Positions 1,322-34,628 of a stretch of DNA of 64,000 nt are shown in pieces. Source of the DNA: Gemmatimonadota bacterium (GTDB lineage Bacteria; JAAXHH01); the NCBI GenBank assembly GCA_026702745.1, contig JAPPBT010000005.1, forward strand, positions 15,387 through 79,386, written 5' to 3'. The notes beneath the pieces are model-generated. The model saw nothing but the letters and a program-made list of their open reading frames with translations. It did no database searches and was not told the origin of the DNA. Position numbers and translations under genes: made by a program. The stretch's first letter is position 1. Each line of letters begins with the position of its first letter.

Positions 1322-1350
1322 ATACGGGGATGTAGATACAATGTAGATAC
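1312..1350. repeat. Short tandem duplication (GGGGATGTAGATAC x2 plus a partial copy) that includes the stop codon of the Ogt/Ada gene
   Basis: Read directly from the sequence. Confidence 0.85.
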
Positions 1351-2183
1351 TACCGATTACGCGGAGGAATCCGGTCGCCAACCGGCCTGGGAATGGGCCT
1401 CCAGTAACCCGAGGGATCACTGCCCCGGCAGATTACGGCCCGGTGGTATTCCGGGTAGCGGCCCCGCACGTCCGGCGGCAGGTACCGGATCGTCAGGCCG
1501 CAACGCCGACGGTCGGATACGTTCGGTTCGGAACCGTGCAGCAGCAGGTCGGTGTGCATGGAGATCTGCCCCGCCTTCATGACGAAGGGCACGGGATCTC
1601 CGCCCCACCTAAGCGGGTCCGTTACGGTCTGGCCCAGCACGTTCCGTTCGGCCTTCGTACTGTTCTCGAAGGGGATCTGCCCGTGCAGGTGGGAACCGGG
1701 GATGACCGTCATGGGCCCGTTTTCTTCGTCCACGTCGTCGATGGCCAGCCAGATCGTCACCACCTTGCTCGGGGTCAGGGGCCAGTAGGACGCGTCCTGG
1801 TGCCAGCTCACCCGCTGCACGTCGCCCGGCATCTTGCAGAAATAGTGGGTCATCTCGCAGATCAGCGTCTCCCCGACCAGGTCTTCCGCGTAGGCCAGTA
1901 TCCGCTCGTTCATGGTAAGATTGTAGATCCCCTCGCAATGCCGCTGCCATCCGTTGATCGAGTAGCTGTTGTATCCTTCCTGATCGGCGCGGGCCATAAG
2001 GTCTTCGAAATACAGGCGGTTCTCTTCGGCCTCCTGCGGGGTAAAGACATCGAGGGGGCAGAGATACCCGTTCGCGTTGAAGAAGTCGACCTGTTCGCGG
2101 GAAAGTGTTTTGGGGTGCTCGTTTCTTGCCGGGAAAAACCGCAGTTCCCGCTTCATTTCGGGCAAAGCATCGGTGATGGGCAT
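1350..2183 (-). CDS. Phytanoyl-CoA dioxygenase (PhyH) family Fe(II)/2OG dioxygenase
   Basis: FFNANGYL N-terminus, WHQD and LLHGS iron triad, TIWLAIDDVDEENGPM. Confidence 0.9.
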   Translation of the reverse strand: MPITDALPEMKRELRFFPARNEHPKTLSREQVDFFNANGYLCPLDVFTPQEAEENRLYFEDLMARADQEGYNSYSINGWQRHCEGIYNLTMNERILAYAEDLVGETLICEMTHYFCKMPGDVQRVSWHQDASYWPLTPSKVVTIWLAIDDVDEENGPMTVIPGSHLHGQIPFENSTKAERNVLGQTVTDPLRWGGDPVPFVMKAGQISMHTDLLLHGSEPNVSDRRRCGLTIRYLPPDVRGRYPEYHRAVICRGSDPSGYWRPIPRPVGDRIPPRNR

Positions 2184-5060: not shown

Positions 5061-5111
5061 CGACCTCGGCGATCACCCGATTCCGGCACGAACTGCCCGG
5101 GTTAAATAACG

Positions 5112-7280
5112 CTATTCCATCAGCACATTCCTGAACCGGGCAATCGTCTCCTCGTCCAGGTCTTCGATCTGCACTTTGCCGGTTTCGAGCTCATACAGTA
5201 GATTATCCAGATGCCGGTCGCGGTTCTTGAGGCGCTTAAAATCGGCCGTGGTCATATCCCTGTGGATGAGTCGCAGCTGCTCCCGCTGCTCCGAAGTCGG
5301 ATAGGTAAACCGCAACTCGAAACGCCGCGCTTTCAGTTTTTCGTACTCAGATTTCAACATGGCCATGGATTCGCCGAAACCAAGCACGCGAACCCACGCT
5401 TTGCTCCGCGTTATCGCCGTAAACAGGCCGATTCGTACACTCGCCAGATTACGTACCGCTGAATGGCAGTCCTGGGCATTGATGATATAGACCATGCCGG
5501 CTTCGTTGCCCTTGGCGCGGTGAACCCCGGTCAGGGTCACCGATGCTTTGCCCGGTCGAAAGAAGGTATTCGGATCCGTGTCGACTCCGGCGAGATGGGA
5601 TCTGATGCCCATTTCCTTCAAACGTCTGCGTATCGGCTCGACGGTCAGGCGTGTCGAAAGAGGATCGGGGTTGATGACCATGATGTCGTCGTGTCGCAGT
5701 TCGTCTTTACCGAGGTTTTCGGCGATGGCCTCCGTCAGCCATTCCGTCTGTTCGTCTGCGTTCCTGAAGGTGATAAAACAGATCAGGTCATCGGGATCGG
5801 AATGGACTTCCAGAAACCCAGGACTTGTGTCCTCCGTACGGTCAAGCGTAACGGCCGAACCGTCGCGCAATGCACCGGCCCGCACCCTGTAACCGATATC
5901 CTCCCAGATATGTGCCCGATCGAACATCTGGACCAGGCCGGTTTTCGTCCCATGGGACGGTTTCCGGTATACCCCGAATCCGAGGGCAAAAGCCGTGGCT
6001 AAAACCTGCTTCGAATTGCGGTAACATTTCGACAGCATGATATCACGCTGCGGTTCGGGATGACCGGTGTCGTCAAATCGCACTTTGGGCGATCCATTCT
6101 CGTTCTTCCCGAAAATCTCCTCTGGAGAAGGCAGGGAACTGCCTCGAAGACTCTGCAGTTCGTCATAGGCGTACACCAGTCTCCCGGGGTGTTTGAGCAG
6201 TTTGTAGCAAAGCCTCAGAAACATGGGCGGTAAATCCTGCGCTTCGTCGACAAATATCGCGTCGTAGACCGGTTCGCGTTCTTGTGCATAAGCAAGGGCG
6301 TATTCGCACGCCCCTTCGAACTCCCTGCCGGGTCCGAATTTGCTGCGCGCCCTTCCGAAATCGAGGAATGCCATGCCGTGCAGTCGACAGAACTCGTGGT
6401 AGATCCCCTCGTGGTCTTTACCCCGCCAGGAACCCCAGGCGTTTACAATACGCAGCCTGTCCCAGTCAGGCTCTTCGCCGGTCTGGTCTATGAAGAAATG
6501 GTTGGTCAGGCGACGAAAATGATCCTTGAGGGAACGTGAATTGAAGGTGACTGCGATGCGCCAGTCAGGATGATGCACGTGGAGATTGGCCGCTTTCAGC
6601 GCCAGTACGATGGTTTTGCCCGAACCCGCCAGACCACGAATGCGTTGTACGCCCTCGACCGTTTCTATGACAGTTTGACTTTGGATGTTGTCCAGTGTCG
6701 CGATCGATTTCTCGAGTTTTTCCAGCTTCGCGCCGCGCGAGTCCTCCTCCGTTACGCTCCGGCCGATTCCGCTTTTACGAACCGTGGCAATGTGCTCGAT
6801 TGCCGACAGCACCTTCTCACACATATCCTGCATATCCTGGCCATGGGGACCTGACCAGGTGAACCGGTTTAACGCCTCTATGAGTGAGGAAGCGTTCGCG
6901 AGCGGGTAATCGTCGATTCGGCATGAATCCGGGTTCCTCAATGCGGGGGCGAATGAGATGGTATGGATGGGAACCATGAGGTCCCGTCGCTGCATCAGTT
7001 CCTTGTGTACCTTAAGCCGGGCTTCGAGCTTGTTTGCCGCATCGTCCTGCCGCGCTCCGTAATCACCCGTATCGTGTCCCTCGATGAGATCGAAAACGAC
7101 CACACCCATATCTGCCGAAACCAGCAGGGCGTCAATCATCCTGAGTCCTTCGGACGTGCTGTAAATCGGATATCCGATGAACAGTCGCCCCGACCAAGTG
7201 GTCTGCTGGGAAACGATCTCTACCAGGGCATCGCTTGAGACGGGCTTCTGGCTGGTACCTCGAACGATATCCACACTCAT
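5112..7280 (-). CDS. Superfamily I DNA/RNA helicase (UvrD-like) with an N-terminal nuclease-related domain
   Basis: Walker A GLAGSGKT, Walker B FVDEAQD, YDELQSL, KCYRNS, VHRAKGNE, LFTAITRSK. Confidence 0.88.
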   Translation of the reverse strand: MSVDIVRGTSQKPVSSDALVEIVSQQTTWSGRLFIGYPIYSTSEGLRMIDALLVSADMGVVVFDLIEGHDTGDYGARQDDAANKLEARLKVHKELMQRRDLMVPIHTISFAPALRNPDSCRIDDYPLANASSLIEALNRFTWSGPHGQDMQDMCEKVLSAIEHIATVRKSGIGRSVTEEDSRGAKLEKLEKSIATLDNIQSQTVIETVEGVQRIRGLAGSGKTIVLALKAANLHVHHPDWRIAVTFNSRSLKDHFRRLTNHFFIDQTGEEPDWDRLRIVNAWGSWRGKDHEGIYHEFCRLHGMAFLDFGRARSKFGPGREFEGACEYALAYAQEREPVYDAIFVDEAQDLPPMFLRLCYKLLKHPGRLVYAYDELQSLRGSSLPSPEEIFGKNENGSPKVRFDDTGHPEPQRDIMLSKCYRNSKQVLATAFALGFGVYRKPSHGTKTGLVQMFDRAHIWEDIGYRVRAGALRDGSAVTLDRTEDTSPGFLEVHSDPDDLICFITFRNADEQTEWLTEAIAENLGKDELRHDDIMVINPDPLSTRLTVEPIRRRLKEMGIRSHLAGVDTDPNTFFRPGKASVTLTGVHRAKGNEAGMVYIINAQDCHSAVRNLASVRIGLFTAITRSKAWVRVLGFGESMAMLKSEYEKLKARRFELRFTYPTSEQREQLRLIHRDMTTADFKRLKNRDRHLDNLLYELETGKVQIEDLDEETIARFRNVLME

Positions 7281-26709: not shown

Positions 26710-28701
26710 TTACCAGTTCTGTACGGGATGTCCGGCCCGTGGGAACCAGGTGACGTCCGCCACGTAGGACAGAAACACGCCCAGCACGAAGGCCACGAGC
26801 ATGCCCATCACCGCGGGTATGGCCTGCCGGTAGAGCTGGATGCCGCCGATCTTCAGCAGCAGGGCCTTCACGCACCAGACCAGGAACAGGGTGAAGGCCG
26901 AACTGGCCATGCCCGGCGTCAGGACCACGGTGAACCCGATGGGATGCAGCGACCACCACGTGAACCGGTGGTGAGCCTGGATCAAAAGGGCGGTGATCAA
27001 ACCGCCGAACATCATGAACCAGAACTCGGTGCCTGTGATCGCCTCCCTGTTATTGATCCATTTAACCAGATTATCGTAAGGTAGCTTGGTCCCGTTGTTG
27101 AACGCAGGCTCGAAGAACTGCGAAGCCCCTCCGTGGTTGTATCCCAAATACAGCGTGAAGATCAGCGCCACCACGATACTCATCGCGAGGACGGCGGTGA
27201 TCGTCTTGAAAGAACCCTTTCCGGTGCCGCCCAGTTCATCGTCCACCTTCGCGATGTGCCCCATGGAGCACATGCCGAGGGTTCGCCAGTTCCGGGCGTA
27301 GGAATTCGCGATGGCCAGGTTGGTCAGGTCCCGCGTGCTGATGCTCCCGGACCCGATGACGGCCACGGTGAAATCGTGGGTCTCGAATGGCAGGTCCAGG
27401 AAAACGATGCCCGTCTCCGCCACGATACGGGTAACGCCCACGAACATGATCAGGAGAGAGCCCATCATGAAGGCGATGATGCCGAGGGACATGCCCGACG
27501 CGTACAGCCAGCAGACGATGTACGAAATGCCCCCCAGCACGCCCAGCACGGCCATTCGGTAAGAGAAGAACTCCCTGGAGTCGTCCACGTGGGGCGCCTT
27601 GCCCAGTGCCTTCATCACGACGTCCTTCAGGTGCCGTCTTGCGGACCACAGCGCGAAAAGGGTAAACACGAGAAAACCACCGGAATGCTGCGATTTGACG
27701 ACGGCAAAGGCCCCGGGCACGCCGAGGCGCGTCATGATGCCCTGCTGAATCGTCATGATGACGAAAAACACCCAGATGCTGAACAGGACGTTCAGGTTGG
27801 TAAAGTATCCGACACCCGCGACCAGGAAATTGAATTTCACGGGAATGGCGGGAAACGACCGCGCCAGCACAAGGTTGAAAAAATGCAGTGGACCGAGGGG
27901 GATCGGACTGACCCAGTTGAAGAAACCGACGATGTTCCAGAGGAAAATGAACAGCGTAATGCCGAAGGCGTACCAGAACAGCTTGGATTGCATCACGGCG
28001 GGCAGCGCCCGGCCCTTTTGCTCCTCGATCATGATCAGCGGGATCTGGGCGAGGGGAAAGGTCAGCCGCTCGTGTTCCACCCACTGCTTGCGGAGCATGA
28101 CCATGGCCGATGCGCCGACCACGAAGATGGCGAGGAAGAAGGTGATCCACCAGACCATCGGAACCGTCCAGGCAGCGCGGATCATACCGAGTACCGGAGG
28201 GCGGCTGTCCGGGATGCCCTCGAAAAACCATGTGAGGGCTTGCTGTTCGTCCTGGACGATGAGCCAGGAGGGCAGGTACTGGAAGAACAGTTCCGCCCAC
28301 TGGTTCTCCGTGGTGGCGTTGTAGTATGGTCCCGTGATGCCGCCGATCCAATAGGAACTGAAGGGCCACGCCGGAATGGTCGAAGCAGTGAAAACCAGGA
28401 AGAAGACGATGATCAGTTCGTTCCGGTTAAGCACCCTGGACGGCCAGAAGCGTTTCAGCAGGGGATTGAGCCCCAGCACCACCAGCAGGAAGGGGAACAG
28501 CGCGGAAACGGGCAGGTGAGTCAGACTGATAAAGGACGACTGGGAGATATAGCCCGCGTGGATCGTCCAGATGTTCAGAAGAATGGACAGAAAGACGCCG
28601 ATCAGCAGCGCCCTTCGAGTGAGCCCGGTGGTCAATGTGGTTGCCAGGCCCCCGCTTCCGGACTCGCCGGTACGTGGGGTGGTCTCGCTGGTCTGGGACA
28701 T
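26710..28701 (-). CDS. Large polytopic membrane protein, DUF6785/DUF6784-like putative transporter
   Basis: Many TM segments; QWVEHERLTFPL, YARNWRT, WWSLHPIGF; paralogous to 32646..34628. Confidence 0.75.
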   Translation of the reverse strand: MSQTSETTPRTGESGSGGLATTLTTGLTRRALLIGVFLSILLNIWTIHAGYISQSSFISLTHLPVSALFPFLLVVLGLNPLLKRFWPSRVLNRNELIIVFFLVFTASTIPAWPFSSYWIGGITGPYYNATTENQWAELFFQYLPSWLIVQDEQQALTWFFEGIPDSRPPVLGMIRAAWTVPMVWWITFFLAIFVVGASAMVMLRKQWVEHERLTFPLAQIPLIMIEEQKGRALPAVMQSKLFWYAFGITLFIFLWNIVGFFNWVSPIPLGPLHFFNLVLARSFPAIPVKFNFLVAGVGYFTNLNVLFSIWVFFVIMTIQQGIMTRLGVPGAFAVVKSQHSGGFLVFTLFALWSARRHLKDVVMKALGKAPHVDDSREFFSYRMAVLGVLGGISYIVCWLYASGMSLGIIAFMMGSLLIMFVGVTRIVAETGIVFLDLPFETHDFTVAVIGSGSISTRDLTNLAIANSYARNWRTLGMCSMGHIAKVDDELGGTGKGSFKTITAVLAMSIVVALIFTLYLGYNHGGASQFFEPAFNNGTKLPYDNLVKWINNREAITGTEFWFMMFGGLITALLIQAHHRFTWWSLHPIGFTVVLTPGMASSAFTLFLVWCVKALLLKIGGIQLYRQAIPAVMGMLVAFVLGVFLSYVADVTWFPRAGHPVQNW

Positions 28702-28760: not shown

Positions 28761-30131
28761 TCAATCCCAGGTGTTTAGTCCTTCTCTGCCGAATGCCGGA
28801 AGAAGGACGAAGTGATCATCGGTTTCCTTCATCCGCTGCCGAAGCAGGTCGTGGTGCCGCGTGACCTCCGCCCGGTACGCCGGATCCTCCACGAGATTCC
28901 GCTGTTCCCATGGGTCCGCTGCAAGGTCGAAGAACTGCCAGGGCGTGCCGCCGTGGTTGTCGCCGCGTACGGTGTACTTATACCGGGCGGTACGGAACCC
29001 GCGCCATACCCAGTCGTGGAAGGCCACGCCTTTCCGCTGCTCCGCCACAAATTCCAGCATTACGCCTTCCCGGTCCAGCCTGCTGACGCCGCCGTGTATC
29101 AGCGGAGCCAGGTTATCGCCGGGCAGGGCGTCTCGCGGCTTCAGGCCGGCCAGGCCCAGTATAGTGGGTAACAGGTCCTCGGTGGAGACCGGGTCCCCGA
29201 TCACGGCGCCGGCCCGGTCCGGGTGGCGGGGGTCCGCCACGATGAGGGGAATCCCCGCGGACTCTTCGTAGGGCCACTGCTTTCCCCGAAGACCATGGGC
29301 GCCGCCGAGCTCTCCATGGTCCGCCATAAACAGCACAACGGTCTCGCCGTGCAGTCCGGTGCGCAAAAGGAATGCGCCCAGGCGGCCCATGTTCCAGTCC
29401 AGGTTCTCGACCATGGCGTAGTACAGCTTCCGGTTGAGCATGACCCGTTCCATGGCCTCGGCGTCGGCCGCTTCCACGTTAGGCGGCAGCACGATGTCCA
29501 TCGCCTCCCAGCTGCGCTGCAGGGCTTCCGGCGCCTCGAAGGGGTCGTGGGGCGGTTCGACGGAGATCACCATGCAGAAGGGACGGGACGGGTCCCGGTG
29601 CTCGAGGTAGTCCATGGCGAGGTCGAAGAGTCCGTCGGTCTGATATCCTTCGACCGGCCTGGGGACCGGGTCGTCATCCTCGAAATAGTAGGTGTCGAAG
29701 GGTCCGTTCCTGAGTTCGAAGCCCATCCATTTCCGCCACCGGCCCCGGTACGCCTTCTTTACGGCCGTCCTCCCGCACTGGACTGCGGACCCCATGCGTC
29801 CGTGTCCGCCGTCGAGATGCCATTTCCCCGTGTAGATCGTCTCGTAGCCCGCTTCGTTGAACTCATCGGCCAGGGTCCGTTCAGCCGGAGACATCCTGTA
29901 CTCGATCGCGGGAACCTTCCGGTCGTGGGCGTACAGTCCCGTCATGAGGGTAAAGCGGAAGGGGACGCAGATGGGGCAGGTCGAACTGGCGTGCTCGAAA
30001 CGCACGCCCCGTCCGGCCAGCGCGTCGACGTGGGGTGTGACGATGTTCGGGTCCCCGTAGGTGGACAGGGCCTGCCGCCGCAGTTGGTCACTCAGGACGA
30101 TCAGCACATTGGGTGGTGATGGTGCCTTCAT
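28761..30131 (-). CDS. Sulfatase
   Basis: PNVLIVLSDQLR, CVPFR (CxPxR formylglycine motif), GKWHL, ADHG. Confidence 0.92.
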   Translation of the reverse strand: MKAPSPPNVLIVLSDQLRRQALSTYGDPNIVTPHVDALAGRGVRFEHASSTCPICVPFRFTLMTGLYAHDRKVPAIEYRMSPAERTLADEFNEAGYETIYTGKWHLDGGHGRMGSAVQCGRTAVKKAYRGRWRKWMGFELRNGPFDTYYFEDDDPVPRPVEGYQTDGLFDLAMDYLEHRDPSRPFCMVISVEPPHDPFEAPEALQRSWEAMDIVLPPNVEAADAEAMERVMLNRKLYYAMVENLDWNMGRLGAFLLRTGLHGETVVLFMADHGELGGAHGLRGKQWPYEESAGIPLIVADPRHPDRAGAVIGDPVSTEDLLPTILGLAGLKPRDALPGDNLAPLIHGGVSRLDREGVMLEFVAEQRKGVAFHDWVWRGFRTARYKYTVRGDNHGGTPWQFFDLAADPWEQRNLVEDPAYRAEVTRHHDLLRQRMKETDDHFVLLPAFGREGLNTWD

Positions 30132-30207: not shown

Positions 30208-30312
30208 CAATTAGGTTGTGTTACGACGACGGGTCTGCTATATTGCCGCACAAGAGAATAACGAATAAACGGTCGTAAATCAACCCGATTCCCCTGGAGG
30301 CGACGCCACCCT

Positions 30313-31158
30313 ATGACCAGACCGGACGACCTGGACATCTACCTGTTCGACCTGCAGGGCTTCCTCCGCCTGGAGCAGGCCCTGACAAAGGCCGAGGTGG
30401 CGGAACTGAACGCCTGCCTGGACGCGATCCCGTCCCTGTCTCCCGGTGAATGGCACGGTTACGTCCACGCCCACACCTACGGCACCGTGGACGGCCTGAA
30501 CCTGCAGCAGATCTACGAAGCGGGCGCCCCTTTCGAGGCGCTGATCGACCATCCATCCTGGATCGACAGGATCAAGCACTTCGTGGGCGGGGAGGGTACC
30601 TTCGACTATGCCCACGGCCCCCTGTTCATCGATGAGAACTTCGCCAATTTCCGGGAACCGGGCGAGGCGATCGGACTGCACTCCGGCGGATATCCGCCCA
30701 TCATGCGCAACGGATTCCGCTACCACGGCGGCCGGTTCATGTGCGGCCAGATCAACGTGCTGATGGCGCTGACCGATATCGGACCCGGCGACGGCGCCAC
30801 CATGGTCATCCCCGGCAGCCACAAGTCCAACTTCACCCATCCCGATTTCGCCCGGCACGCCATGAAGCCGAAGGGCGCCTCGGTGGAAGGCATCGCCGCG
30901 TCGGTCGAACTTTTCATGGAAGCCGGCGACGCGCTGCTCTTCGTGGACGGTATCTCCCATGGTTCGGCCATGCGGCGGAACGCGGGCACCCGCCGTATCG
31001 TGGTCTACCGGTACGGACCGTCATGGGGTAACTTCCGCCACGGCTACCAGCCGTCTCCCGATCTGCTGGATCGCCTTACTCCGGAACAGCGGCAAATCGT
31101 CTCACCGCAAAAGGCCTCGCCCGAAGGCGCGCCCTACGACGGGCCCGGCCTGGACTAG
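30313..31158 (+). CDS. PhyH family Fe(II)/2OG enzyme with HxG in place of HxD
   Basis: YLFDLQGFL, IGLHSGG, VLMALTDIGPGDGATMVIPGSH, ISHGS. Confidence 0.85.
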   Translation: MTRPDDLDIYLFDLQGFLRLEQALTKAEVAELNACLDAIPSLSPGEWHGYVHAHTYGTVDGLNLQQIYEAGAPFEALIDHPSWIDRIKHFVGGEGTFDYAHGPLFIDENFANFREPGEAIGLHSGGYPPIMRNGFRYHGGRFMCGQINVLMALTDIGPGDGATMVIPGSHKSNFTHPDFARHAMKPKGASVEGIAASVELFMEAGDALLFVDGISHGSAMRRNAGTRRIVVYRYGPSWGNFRHGYQPSPDLLDRLTPEQRQIVSPQKASPEGAPYDGPGLD

Positions 31159-31167
31159 GCGGCAGCG

Positions 31168-32589
31168 TCACGGCGGGAAGTGAAATCGCCGGCGCAGCCG
31201 CCTCCGCAGCGCCGCGACCATTTCCAGCTGTTCGTCCGCCACGTTATCTAACTCGTCCGGATCGCTTACCAGATCATACAGTTCGACCTCGCCCGTGTGA
31301 TGCGCCACCAGCTTGTGTTCCGCGGTCCGGATCAGCCTGAACTCCCGCAGTGCACTGGCCGCTTCCTCCCGATGCGTCGTCCGTTCCCCCGCGAGCACGG
31401 GGCCCAGGTCTCGCGCATCGAGGCCTTCCTGGGCGGGCAGGCCCGCCAGTGAACACAGCGTGGGATTGACATCGATCAGTTCCACGAGGGCGTCGGACGT
31501 ACGTCCGCCCGGTATGCCCGGCCCGGCGGCGATCAGGGGCACCCGCAGGGCCGCCTCGTAGGGCACAGACTTGGTGTACAGCCCGTGATCGCCCAGCATC
31601 TCGCCGTGGTCGCTGGCGAAGACGACCACGGTGTTCTCCCCCATGCCCCTCCGTTCAATCGCTTCAATGATCCGGCCCACCTGGTCGTCGATCAGTTCGA
31701 TGGCCGCGCAGTACTGACGGCGGGTTACGGCAATCTCCTCGGCGGAAAGATCGCGGCGCCGGGCCTTGACCCAGTCCGGCTTTCCCTCGCGGTCTCCGTC
31801 TTCGCGACTGCCACCCTCGCAGCCATCATCCCCGTGCCCGCCACCCTCGTGCCCACTGTGCACGGCCGGCGGCACCGCCGCATCCCGGTAACGGTCGGCG
31901 TATTCGGCGGGCGGATCGAAGGGGTCATGGGGCCCCACAAAGCTGACGAAGAGGTGCCACGGGTAGTCGTCCGGCACGGCGTCGATCCATTCGGCGGCGC
32001 GGCGGCCGATGTAGACGTCCTCGAAGGCTTCGGCGGGCAGTACCGAATCGTGGGAAGCGCCTTCGATCCATCCCCGTGCCTGGCGGGCCGCGTAATCCGT
32101 ACGGAATGCTTCGAACAGTCCCTGCTCCTGCAGCCAGAAGCCGTAGGGTCCCCGCGGTTCGTCCGCCATGCCCGCGTGCATCTTGCCCTCGCATTCCACG
32201 GGATGGGTGAAGCCCCAGCCGAAGACCCGGGGCCGGTCGCCGCGGCGGCCGTTGTAGGGGTCCGGCTTGGCCAGGTCGAGCTTGCCCACGCCACCGACCC
32301 GGTACCCCGCGTCCCGCAGGCGGGCGTAATAGGGCGTGATATGCCGGGGCAGGTAGCAGTTGTTGTCGAGGCACCCCAGCCGCGCGGGCTGGAGTCCGCT
32401 GGCCAGGCCGATGCGCGCAGGGGCGCAGACCGGGGCGTTGGTGATGCATTGCGTGAAACGGATCCCGCGTCTCGCCAGGCGGTCCAGGTTCGGCGTATTC
32501 AGGAACGACGCGCCCGCGGCCGACAGGTAGTCGTGGCGGTGCTGGTCGTCCATGATGAAGAGCAGATTGGGGCGTTTGGATTCGGCCAT
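31168..32589 (-). CDS. Sulfatase
   Basis: RPNLLFIMDDQHR, CAPAR motif, GPHDPF, SDHGEMLGDH. Confidence 0.92.
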   Translation of the reverse strand: MAESKRPNLLFIMDDQHRHDYLSAAGASFLNTPNLDRLARRGIRFTQCITNAPVCAPARIGLASGLQPARLGCLDNNCYLPRHITPYYARLRDAGYRVGGVGKLDLAKPDPYNGRRGDRPRVFGWGFTHPVECEGKMHAGMADEPRGPYGFWLQEQGLFEAFRTDYAARQARGWIEGASHDSVLPAEAFEDVYIGRRAAEWIDAVPDDYPWHLFVSFVGPHDPFDPPAEYADRYRDAAVPPAVHSGHEGGGHGDDGCEGGSREDGDREGKPDWVKARRRDLSAEEIAVTRRQYCAAIELIDDQVGRIIEAIERRGMGENTVVVFASDHGEMLGDHGLYTKSVPYEAALRVPLIAAGPGIPGGRTSDALVELIDVNPTLCSLAGLPAQEGLDARDLGPVLAGERTTHREEAASALREFRLIRTAEHKLVAHHTGEVELYDLVSDPDELDNVADEQLEMVAALRRRLRRRFHFPP

Positions 32590-32645: not shown

Positions 32646-34628
32646 TTAGTTTATGAACGACTCGAACTGGTGCGGCGCCGCCGGAAACCACATGCTGTCC
32701 ACGAGGAACGAGAGCGCCATGCCGAGGACATACCCCACCAGGATGCCGAGGAACAGCGGCTGGGCCCTGCGGTAAAGCGCCCCTCCGCCCAAACGCAGCA
32801 GGATCACCTGGATGAGCCATGCCAGGAAGAAAGGCAGGAACATGAACCGCACGGTGTCCGCGGCCACGGCGACCAGCCCGATGGGATGGAGCGGCCACCA
32901 GAGGAACAGGAATCGACCGAGGATCATCAGCATGTACAGGACGATGCCGTTCCCGAAGAAGATCAATTCCAGGTCCGAGACGCTGCTTACGCTGCTGTTC
33001 CACGTCATGATCGTGTTGTAGAAGAAGGGCACGAGGTCGCCGGGCTTGGAAAGGAGATTGTCGGCGCCGACGGCGTATCCCGCGCTGATGTAATAGTAGA
33101 GAGAAGTCACCACGCTGACGGCGAAAGCCAGACAGATCCAGAGGAATAGATGCCGGGTGGCCGGCGTTACCCAGCGCTGCAGGAAGGCGGCGTGGGACAG
33201 CCCGATCATCGTGAAGGTCCGCCAGTTCCGGGCGAAAGCGTTCGTCATGCCGAGGGCGGTGATCGTGGACGGGTCCAGGTTGTCGGCGCCGATGATGCCC
33301 GCGGTGAAGTTGTTGGCGTTCACCGGCAGGTCCATGGCGACCAGTCCCGCCTCTGCGACGATCCGGGCCATGCCGAGGTAGATGGTGAAGAGGACCGCCA
33401 GGAGGATCAGGCTGACCGGCAGGGACATGCCGATGCTGTACAGCCAGGCCAGCAGGTAGAACACGCCGAAAATCAAACCAAAAACCGCCACCCGGTACGA
33501 GAAGAACTCGCCGCTGTCATCCACCGACGGATCCTTGCCGAAGGCCCGCCGGGCCACAGAGGCCAGGTGCCGGCGCGCCATCCACAGTCCCCACACCACC
33601 AGGGCGATCAGGGCGCCGATGGACTGGGTGCCCACGAGACCGGTCGGCGACATGGTCGTCGCCGCCGTAATTCCAAGCATGTTCAACAGCCCTCGCTGCA
33701 GCGTGGTGAACAGCAGGAAGAAACACAGGCTGAACAGGATTTCGGCATTGATGAAGAAGGCGAAGCAGAATACGAAGACATTCAGCCGGATGGGAAGGTC
33801 CGGGATCGACGGATGGACCTGTAATTGCAGCAGGTCCGGTCCCATGATGGGGACGGGCGTAACAATGTCCCAGTAGGAGGCGATGTTCCAGCACACGACG
33901 GCCAGCGACAGACCGGCGCCGATCCGGAAGGCGGTCGTGCGGACCATGGGCGGTTCGTCCCGGTCCTTCCCTACGCCCATCAGGTTGAGTGCCACCTCCC
34001 CCAGGGGAAAGCGCAGCCGTTCGTGGCTCACCCACTGCTTCCTCAGGATGACCACGATGCATGCGCCCGTCCACATCAGGGCGCCGAAACACGACATCCA
34101 CCACAGCAGCGGCGAAATCCAGGCCATCCAGGGGATCCGGTAGCCCGGCACGGCGCCCTCGTAGAAAACACGTACCGCGTCGGTCTTTCCGCTGATTACC
34201 AGCCACGTGGGCAGCGTGTCGAAAAACGTCTCCGCCCAACGGTTTTCGGGACTCGCATGGTAGAAGGGTCCGGTGATGATGGAGACCAGGTACCGGGTCA
34301 TGCCCCAGTCGGGCACCATGGATCCGATCATGCCCATGGCGAAGACCACGATCAGTTCGGACTTAGTCAGGGCGTACCCGGGCGCCAGCCTCTTGAGCAG
34401 GACGTGGGGACCCAGAATGAGGACCAGGAAGGGGATCAACAGCGCCGCGGGGAGATGGGCGTAAGTGGAGTAGTTGTATCCGGCGTGATCGGCGGAGAAC
34501 TGGCCCCAGAAGGCGACCACGGCGGAGAGCGCGAGCCCGATGATCCCGGCCCGCAGGGTTATGGCCGAAGCGCCCCGGGACCTGGGAGGTTCAGGGGACA
34601 TGGCGTTCATCCGATCCGATTGCGGCAC
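32646..34628 (-). CDS. Large polytopic membrane protein, DUF6785/DUF6784-like putative transporter
   Basis: QWVSHERLRFPL, FARNWRT, WWPLHPIGL; paralogous to 26710..28701. Confidence 0.75.
   Translation of the reverse strand: MPQSDRMNAMSPEPPRSRGASAITLRAGIIGLALSAVVAFWGQFSADHAGYNYSTYAHLPAALLIPFLVLILGPHVLLKRLAPGYALTKSELIVVFAMGMIGSMVPDWGMTRYLVSIITGPFYHASPENRWAETFFDTLPTWLVISGKTDAVRVFYEGAVPGYRIPWMAWISPLLWWMSCFGALMWTGACIVVILRKQWVSHERLRFPLGEVALNLMGVGKDRDEPPMVRTTAFRIGAGLSLAVVCWNIASYWDIVTPVPIMGPDLLQLQVHPSIPDLPIRLNVFVFCFAFFINAEILFSLCFFLLFTTLQRGLLNMLGITAATTMSPTGLVGTQSIGALIALVVWGLWMARRHLASVARRAFGKDPSVDDSGEFFSYRVAVFGLIFGVFYLLAWLYSIGMSLPVSLILLAVLFTIYLGMARIVAEAGLVAMDLPVNANNFTAGIIGADNLDPSTITALGMTNAFARNWRTFTMIGLSHAAFLQRWVTPATRHLFLWICLAFAVSVVTSLYYYISAGYAVGADNLLSKPGDLVPFFYNTIMTWNSSVSSVSDLELIFFGNGIVLYMLMILGRFLFLWWPLHPIGLVAVAADTVRFMFLPFFLAWLIQVILLRLGGGALYRRAQPLFLGILVGYVLGMALSFLVDSMWFPAAPHQFESFIN

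Follow-up and report, generated by a model that had tools for sequence, protein, structure and literature searches.

The target, a PhyH-family protein encoded in the window (the whole stretch of 64,000 nucleotides that was analysed, C15:15387-79386 of a genome assembly of 3.88 Mb in 102 contigs), is probably an Fe(II)/2-oxoglutarate (2OG) oxygenase of the HygX type, in which the carboxylate of the iron-binding triad is relocated, so that the iron site would be formed by H123, H216 and D212 and would not serve halide transfer. HygX, from Streptomyces hygroscopicus, is the Fe(II)/2OG oxygenase that forms the orthoester of hygromycin B (PDB entries: 4XC9, 4XCA, 4XCB and 4ZPI). The variant of the iron site is itself already described from this enzyme, and the target is a further member of the type.

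The target gene and its product

The open reading frame starts with an ATG codon, in agreement with the N-termini of the homologues (Table 1). The encoded protein matches the Pfam family PhyH (PF05721) with 64.4 bits (cut-off 22), covering positions 1-212 of the 213 positions of the model, and it matches no other Pfam family. The homologue search gives more than 3000 homologues, a protein atlas search returns only clusters named 'PhyH family', and the matches to NCBIfam models (SpoChoClust_3, with 21 bits, ectoine hydroxylase and PhnY-like) are all below threshold. The gene is the only one on its strand between two minus-strand pairs, each consisting of a sulfatase gene and a DUF6785/DUF6784 gene; a scan for sigma-70 promoters upstream of the target finds nothing convincing.

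The AF2 model, calculated from 90 diverse sequences, has a pLDDT of 92.2 and a pTM of 0.91 and supersedes a model calculated from 29 close homologues (pLDDT 65). The top matches of this model in Foldseek and in the VIA comparison are all PhyH-type oxygenases, with Z-scores of 21-26, which identifies the fold as a PhyH-type double-stranded beta-helix.

Table 1. Features of the target gene, its neighbours in the window and the non-HxD PhyH paralogues of the genome. Positions are those of the window, except for the paralogues, which are given as contig:start-end.
Feature	Position	Strand	Remarks
PhyH-family Fe(II)/2OG oxygenase gene (target), probable HygX-like relocated-triad subtype	30313..31158	+	281 aa; PF05721, AF2 model, fold match
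Ribosome-binding site GGAGG	30296..30300	+	12 nt 5' of the ATG; read from the sequence
H123-S124-G125	30679..30687	+	codons CAC TCC GGC; aligns with HygX H102-G103-G104
N148	30754..30756	+	aligned with HygX Lys137 (HMMER alignment to 4xc9_A)
D212-G-I-S-H216 (D-x3-H)	30946..30960	+	D212 = HygX Glu202 and H216 = His206 by alignment
R227-R228	30991..30996	+	R227 = H216+11; counterpart in the alignment of Arg at His206+11 of HygX
DUF6785/DUF6784 polytopic membrane protein, downstream of first sulfatase	26710..28701	-	Pfam 363 and 62 bits
Type I sulfatase, CxPxR (CVPFR), divergent from target	28761..30131	-	Pfam Sulfatase 150 bits
Type I sulfatase, CxPxR (CAPAR), convergent with target	31168..32589	-	Pfam Sulfatase 143 bits
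Second DUF6785/DUF6784 membrane protein, upstream of second sulfatase	32646..34628	-	Pfam 350 and 64 bits
Non-HxD paralogue	C89:678-1682		Glu at -4
Non-HxD paralogue	C7:8445-9509		Glu at -4
Non-HxD paralogue	C29:84277-85233		Glu at -4
Non-HxD paralogue	C31:54165-54968		Glu at -4
Non-HxD paralogue	C58:5015-5935		Glu at -4
Non-HxD paralogue	C15:97467-98759		Glu at -4
Non-HxD paralogue	C29:31764-32594		Glu at -4
Non-HxD paralogue	C89:1-727		Glu at -4
Non-HxD paralogue	C62:13326-14231		Glu at -4
Non-HxD paralogue	C33:12463-13278		Glu at -4
Non-HxD paralogue	C29:23559-24467		Glu at -4

The first iron-binding motif has no carboxylate

In an iterated HMM search of all open reading frames of the window, ten PhyH proteins in all are obtained, the target being one of them. 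In the other nine proteins the first iron-binding motif reads HSD, HID, HVD, HQD, HLD, HQD, HSD, HSD and HYD, and the distal histidine, which is H216 in the ISHGS sequence of the target, is invariant in all ten. The canonical HxD/E...H facial triad, with its acid two residues past the first histidine, is absent in the target, which has H123-S-G125 at this site. H123 is the predicted proximal iron-binding histidine, and G125 takes the position of the Asp/Glu ligand of the canonical enzymes. The sequence-only reading had noted an HxG motif where the nine paralogues have HxD, with the distal histidine being kept, and the alignment of the ten paralogues bears this out.

All of 29 homologues with 67-90% identity, which belong to Latescibacterota, Gemmatimonadota, Zixibacteria, Handelsmanbacteria and Chloroflexota, have the H-S-G-G sequence as part of GEAIG[LI]HSGG. 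Because of this invariance across several phyla, G125 is neither a sequencing slip nor a private mutation. When 90 relatives with sequence identities down to about 25% are considered, position 125 is glycine in 82, serine in six, alanine in one and proline in one of them, and it is never Asp or Glu. Glycine at position 125 is a fixed character of the family.

An invariant aspartate precedes the distal histidine

H216 is the predicted distal iron-binding histidine, and D212, four residues before it, very probably replaces the acid of the HxD motif as an iron ligand, as in HygX, when the two proteins are aligned. All 29 homologues of the close family have D212, and position 212 is acidic in all 90 diverse relatives, being glutamate in 54 and aspartate in 36 of them. 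In the AF2 model, D212 is at the end of the strand formed by residues 207-211, and H216 begins the next short strand. R227, the position of which is occupied by arginine in 89 of the 90 relatives, is at the usual site of the arginine that binds the C5 carboxylate of 2OG, a role that is presumed here from general knowledge of PhyH enzymes. Both histidines, the acid at -4 from the distal histidine, the 2OG arginine and a PGSHK loop are 99-100% conserved in the 90 relatives.

The residues around position 212 depend on which acid is present. Among the 90 relatives, aspartate co-varies with S124, Q146, N148 and S218, and glutamate with Gly, Leu, Val and Thr at these positions; this co-variation around the site in the Asp group indicates that its iron site is remodelled. 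Position 148 is asparagine in 29 and aspartate in three of the 36 Asp-type relatives, and it is lysine in two of the 90 relatives overall.

Loss of the HxD acid is coupled to the acid at -4

The genome encodes 112 proteins matching PF05721, or 114 when a custom HMM is used. When these copies are aligned to one HMM, 95 of those with both histidines read HxD. Twelve copies are without the HxD acid (HxG/A/N/K/S/Q), and all twelve have Asp or Glu at -4 from the distal histidine, mostly in the sequences FTEALTHGT or FNEATTHGA, whereas such an acid is present in only three of the 95 canonical copies (Fisher p = 1.8e-13). In a maximum-likelihood tree the 12 non-HxD copies are found in one clade of 16 (support 0.96), and two further members of this clade have Glu at -4, their first motif being represented by a gap in the alignment. 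The frequencies (12/12 versus 3/95) together with the shared clade therefore indicate that the HxD acid is lost and the acid at -4 gained as one coupled character, which belongs to one PhyH subfamily. Such a coupling is what replacement of the ligand would predict. Of the 12 non-HxD paralogues, the target alone has Asp at -4; the other eleven have Glu.

One of the three canonical copies with an acid at -4 is encoded in the window (positions 1350-2183, minus strand). Its first motif is W-H-Q-D, the aspartate at -4 is found in the sequence HTDLLLHGS, and its best relatives of known structure include SyrB2 and CytC3, with 54 and 46 bits, respectively. Another PhyH match of the genome (C55:75528-76232, minus strand) is interrupted by two in-frame TAA stop codons and is probably a pseudogene.

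HygX is the closest relative of known structure

HygX is the only characterised relative of the target, and it is also the best match among solved structures, with E-values of 1e-12 for the single protein, 4e-16 for the profile of the close family and, over the full length, 3e-31 for the profile of the diverse family. In the HMMER alignment to 4xc9_A and the profile alignment to 4xcb_A, LHGGNS of HygX is paired with LHSGG of the target and LNEALMHGT with FVDGISHGS. Counting along the alignment gives the correspondences H123=H102, G125=G104, N148=K137, D212=E202, H216=H206 and R227=R217, and the number obtained in this way for K137 agrees with the literature. The comparison of the folds gives the same result, as the HygX chains are the best PDB matches of the AF2 model in Foldseek (E 3e-18, TM 0.70-0.77), and VIA-align superimposes 214-216 residues with a Z-score of 26.0, an rmsd of 2.1 Å and 23-24% identity. 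The next fold family, comprising TlxI, SptF, PrhA and FtmOx1, has Z-scores of 22-23, about 3 Z below HygX.

The iron motif of HygX is H-X-G E-X3-H, having a relocated acid, and the gap left by the glycine is filled by Lys137, as described in a 2026 review (PMC13374393), on which this account of the HygX ligands relies. According to the same review, HygX makes an orthoester by oxidative cyclisation, and the enzyme is no halogenase. The fold, the H-x-G motif, the acid at -4 from the distal histidine and the arginine 11 residues past it are thus common to HygX and the target. From the alignment we infer that D212 binds the iron in the way of the relocated glutamate. The canonical PhyH hydroxylases PAHX (human, PDB entry: 2A1X) and EctD (ectoine hydroxylase, PDB entries: 3EMR and 4MHR) also share with the target the Pfam family, the fold and the positions of the two histidines and of the 2OG arginine, but they keep the HxD motif and have no acid at -4, as is the case for 92 of the 95 canonical paralogues of the genome.

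There are also differences between the target and HygX. The sequence identity of the two proteins is only 21-24%, they differ in the relocated acid, with Asp in the target and Glu in HygX, Asp being one methylene shorter, and Lys137 of HygX is replaced by Asn148. The aminoglycoside/orthosomycin cluster context of HygX is not found for the target, which adjoins modules of sulfatase and DUF6785 genes, and the neighbours are heterogeneous in other lineages. Unlike HygX, the target belongs to a very large family that is highly conserved among uncultured bacteria of marine, sponge and freshwater origin. Because of the replacements of Glu by Asp and of Lys137 by Asn, the site of the target is a variant rather than a copy of the HygX site, which leaves some room for a site with only two histidine ligands.

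The predicted reaction and the role of D212

The target would be a soluble enzyme with the PhyH fold, in which the iron is held by H123, H216 and a carboxylate that is moved from the HxD motif to D212, and in which R227 would hold 2OG. Two histidines and one carboxylate, together with bidentate 2OG, would leave one free position on the iron, for O2. With a single free position, oxygen-atom transfer or oxidative C-H functionalisation would be expected, and not halide transfer; hydroxylation, desaturation and oxidative cyclisation are the kinds of reaction that would fit.

There is a small chance that the iron is bound by the two histidines only and that D212 is in the second sphere or binds the substrate, the free site then being available for water or for a heteroatom of the substrate. 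This would be in agreement with the shorter side chain of Asp when compared with the HygX glutamate and with the remodelling seen in the co-variation of Asp with S124, Q146, N148 and S218. There is also a precedent, as AspH (human aspartate/asparagine beta-hydroxylase) is an active hydroxylase with only two histidine ligands (PMC10947486). AspH resembles the target in being without the HxD/E acid, but it belongs to another subfamily and is not detected as a relative, and a relocated carboxylate is not described for it. The perfect coupling of the loss of the HxD acid to the gain of the acid at -4, as predicted by ligand compensation, and the interchange of D and E at -4 within one clade argue against such a site and favour D212 as the third ligand.

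A little less probable still is a reading in which D212 is not on the iron, or only transiently so, and in which the H-S-G-G/N148/D-x3-H family catalyses a non-hydroxylating reaction, with a free small molecule from marine or sponge sources as the substrate, the candidate reactions being halogenation, oxidative cyclisation and oxidative cleavage of a sulfate ester. If true, this would add a new class of reaction to those of the large PhyH expansions in sponge symbionts.

Comparison with the PhyH-fold halogenases

The sequence-only reading had proposed that the target is a candidate radical halogenase or else another non-canonical oxygenase. It is very unlikely that the target is an Fe(II)/2OG halogenase, in which chloride or bromide would be bound at a site opened by G125, and D212 would not be a metal ligand. 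The target has the HxG motif, which is invariant, halogenases with the PhyH fold exist, and two of them, SyrB2 and CytC3, are weak matches of the family profile (E 3-4e-4); sponges and their symbionts are also rich in halogenated metabolites. The comparison with these enzymes, however, favours the oxygenase. SyrB2 and CytC3 (PDB entries: 2FCT and 3GJA; TIGR01762), which depend on a carrier protein, resemble the target in the PhyH-like fold and in having a small residue instead of the acid, but the first motif of SyrB2 is WHQA and its second is FWSTLMHAS, when aligned to a canonical paralogue of the window, with Ser, and not an acid, at -4. The family profile gives only 23 bits for SyrB2 and CytC3, compared with 111 for HygX and 53-54 for the hydroxylases PAHX and EctD. 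An Asp or Glu elsewhere at the third ligand site had been named in the sequence-only reading as evidence against halogenation, and the sequence and fold comparisons find such a residue in D212, which is invariant, is aligned with the iron-binding glutamate of HygX and is at a position where all 90 relatives have an acid. This speaks against the proposal of a halogenase, and the HygX-type motifs and the fold match support the proposal of another non-canonical oxygenase.

The searches for halogenase relatives are in agreement with this. The TIGR01762 model of chlorinating enzymes has no match to the target at E <= 0.01; genome-wide, none of the proteins reaches its cut-off of 226 bits, and several canonical HxD paralogues, but not the target, match it weakly. 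WelO5 and BesD chains are not present among all 23 PDB sequences found for the target at E <= 1. In the fold comparison, SyrB2, CytC3 and WelO5 are not among the best 50 of 1000 chains, a ranking with which some similarity is still compatible. Genes for carrier proteins or NRPSs are found neither among the four flanking genes nor in the representative loci (best 25 of 111 families).

An HxG motif in 2OG oxygenases is often taken as a signature of halogenases, but it is insufficient in PhyH proteins. The activity of AspH with two histidine ligands (PMC10947486) likewise means that HxG alone does not imply halogenation. The caution expressed in the sequence-only reading, that HxG PhyH-like proteins are widespread and are not proven halogenases, is correct. 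The residue at -4 from the distal histidine needs to be checked as well, as an acid at this position marks the relocated triad of the HygX type; SyrB2, with Ser, is the sole halogenase for which this position was checked.

That the target is a catalytically dead paralogue, being a pseudo-enzyme or a binding protein after loss of the iron site, is hardly credible, because, although degenerate copies are to be expected among about 114 PhyH genes and one copy elsewhere has stop codons, its reading frame is uninterrupted and preceded by a good ribosome-binding site, the family is 67-90% identical across phyla, and both histidines, the acid at -4, the 2OG arginine and the PGSHK loop are conserved as described above.

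Distribution of the family

The nearest loci, with 95-96% identity and the same synteny, are found in sponge-derived MAGs that are labelled Gemmatimonadetes or Latescibacterota. Relatives having both signature peptides are present in 480 of about 185,000 species genomes, including Poribacteria, Chloroflexota, Zixibacteria and the verrucomicrobial Moanabacter, and identities of 67-90% are seen within the family across Latescibacterota, Gemmatimonadota, Poribacteria, Chloroflexota and others. Expansions of PhyH genes, the functions of which are largely unexplained, have been documented in sponge symbionts, including Poribacteria (Kamke 2014, PMC3909097). The 112-114 PhyH genes in the 3.88 Mb genome, ten of them in the window, form an expansion like that of Poribacteria. 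The substrate of the target family would be the first functional handle on these expansions in sponge symbionts.

Gene neighbourhood and the possible substrate

Each of the two sulfatases that flank the target is paired with a DUF6785/DUF6784 membrane protein. Both sulfatases look cytoplasmic, as judged from their sequences, which start straight at the catalytic core (...NVLIVLSDQ and ...NLLFIMDDQ) and have no obvious signal peptide. The membrane protein encoded downstream of the first sulfatase has a weak similarity to OPT transporters. When 80 loci are compared after clustering, this arrangement of sulfatase and DUF6785 genes is common only to 17-20 close relatives, and no conserved operon partner is found across the 80 loci. 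Among the dereplicated neighbours, sulfatases (5/83) and PhyH proteins (4/83) are the commonest families.

In at least 17 Latescibacterota loci (L022-L044 type, for example L023:6830-9711), which represent one related group only, the homologue is encoded 5-7 bp from an upstream enolase-superfamily (MR_MLE) gene and a downstream gene for an RmlA-like sugar-phosphate nucleotidyltransferase. This layout suggests an operon tied to the metabolism of sugars or sugar acids. The neighbours in other lineages include a 2-hydroxyacid dehydrogenase, an RmlD-like epimerase, an apiosidase-like glycosidase, a sulfatase, an amidohydrolase, UbiA, an O-methyltransferase and a second copy of the family.

HygX acts on a pseudo-trisaccharide. 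The best guess for the substrate of the target is a sugar-like or desulfated small molecule, because of the sugar substrate of HygX and because of weak but recurring links to carbohydrates and sulfate esters, with sulfatases flanking the gene in this genome and in two further lineages.

In about ten Latescibacterota and Gemmatimonadota genomes the target family is present as a tandem pair (L053, at about 5100-7000, and L056, L062, L063, L066, L067, L074, L075, L077 and L079), with a 3-hydroxyacyl-CoA dehydrogenase gene before the pair and an O-methyltransferase gene after it.
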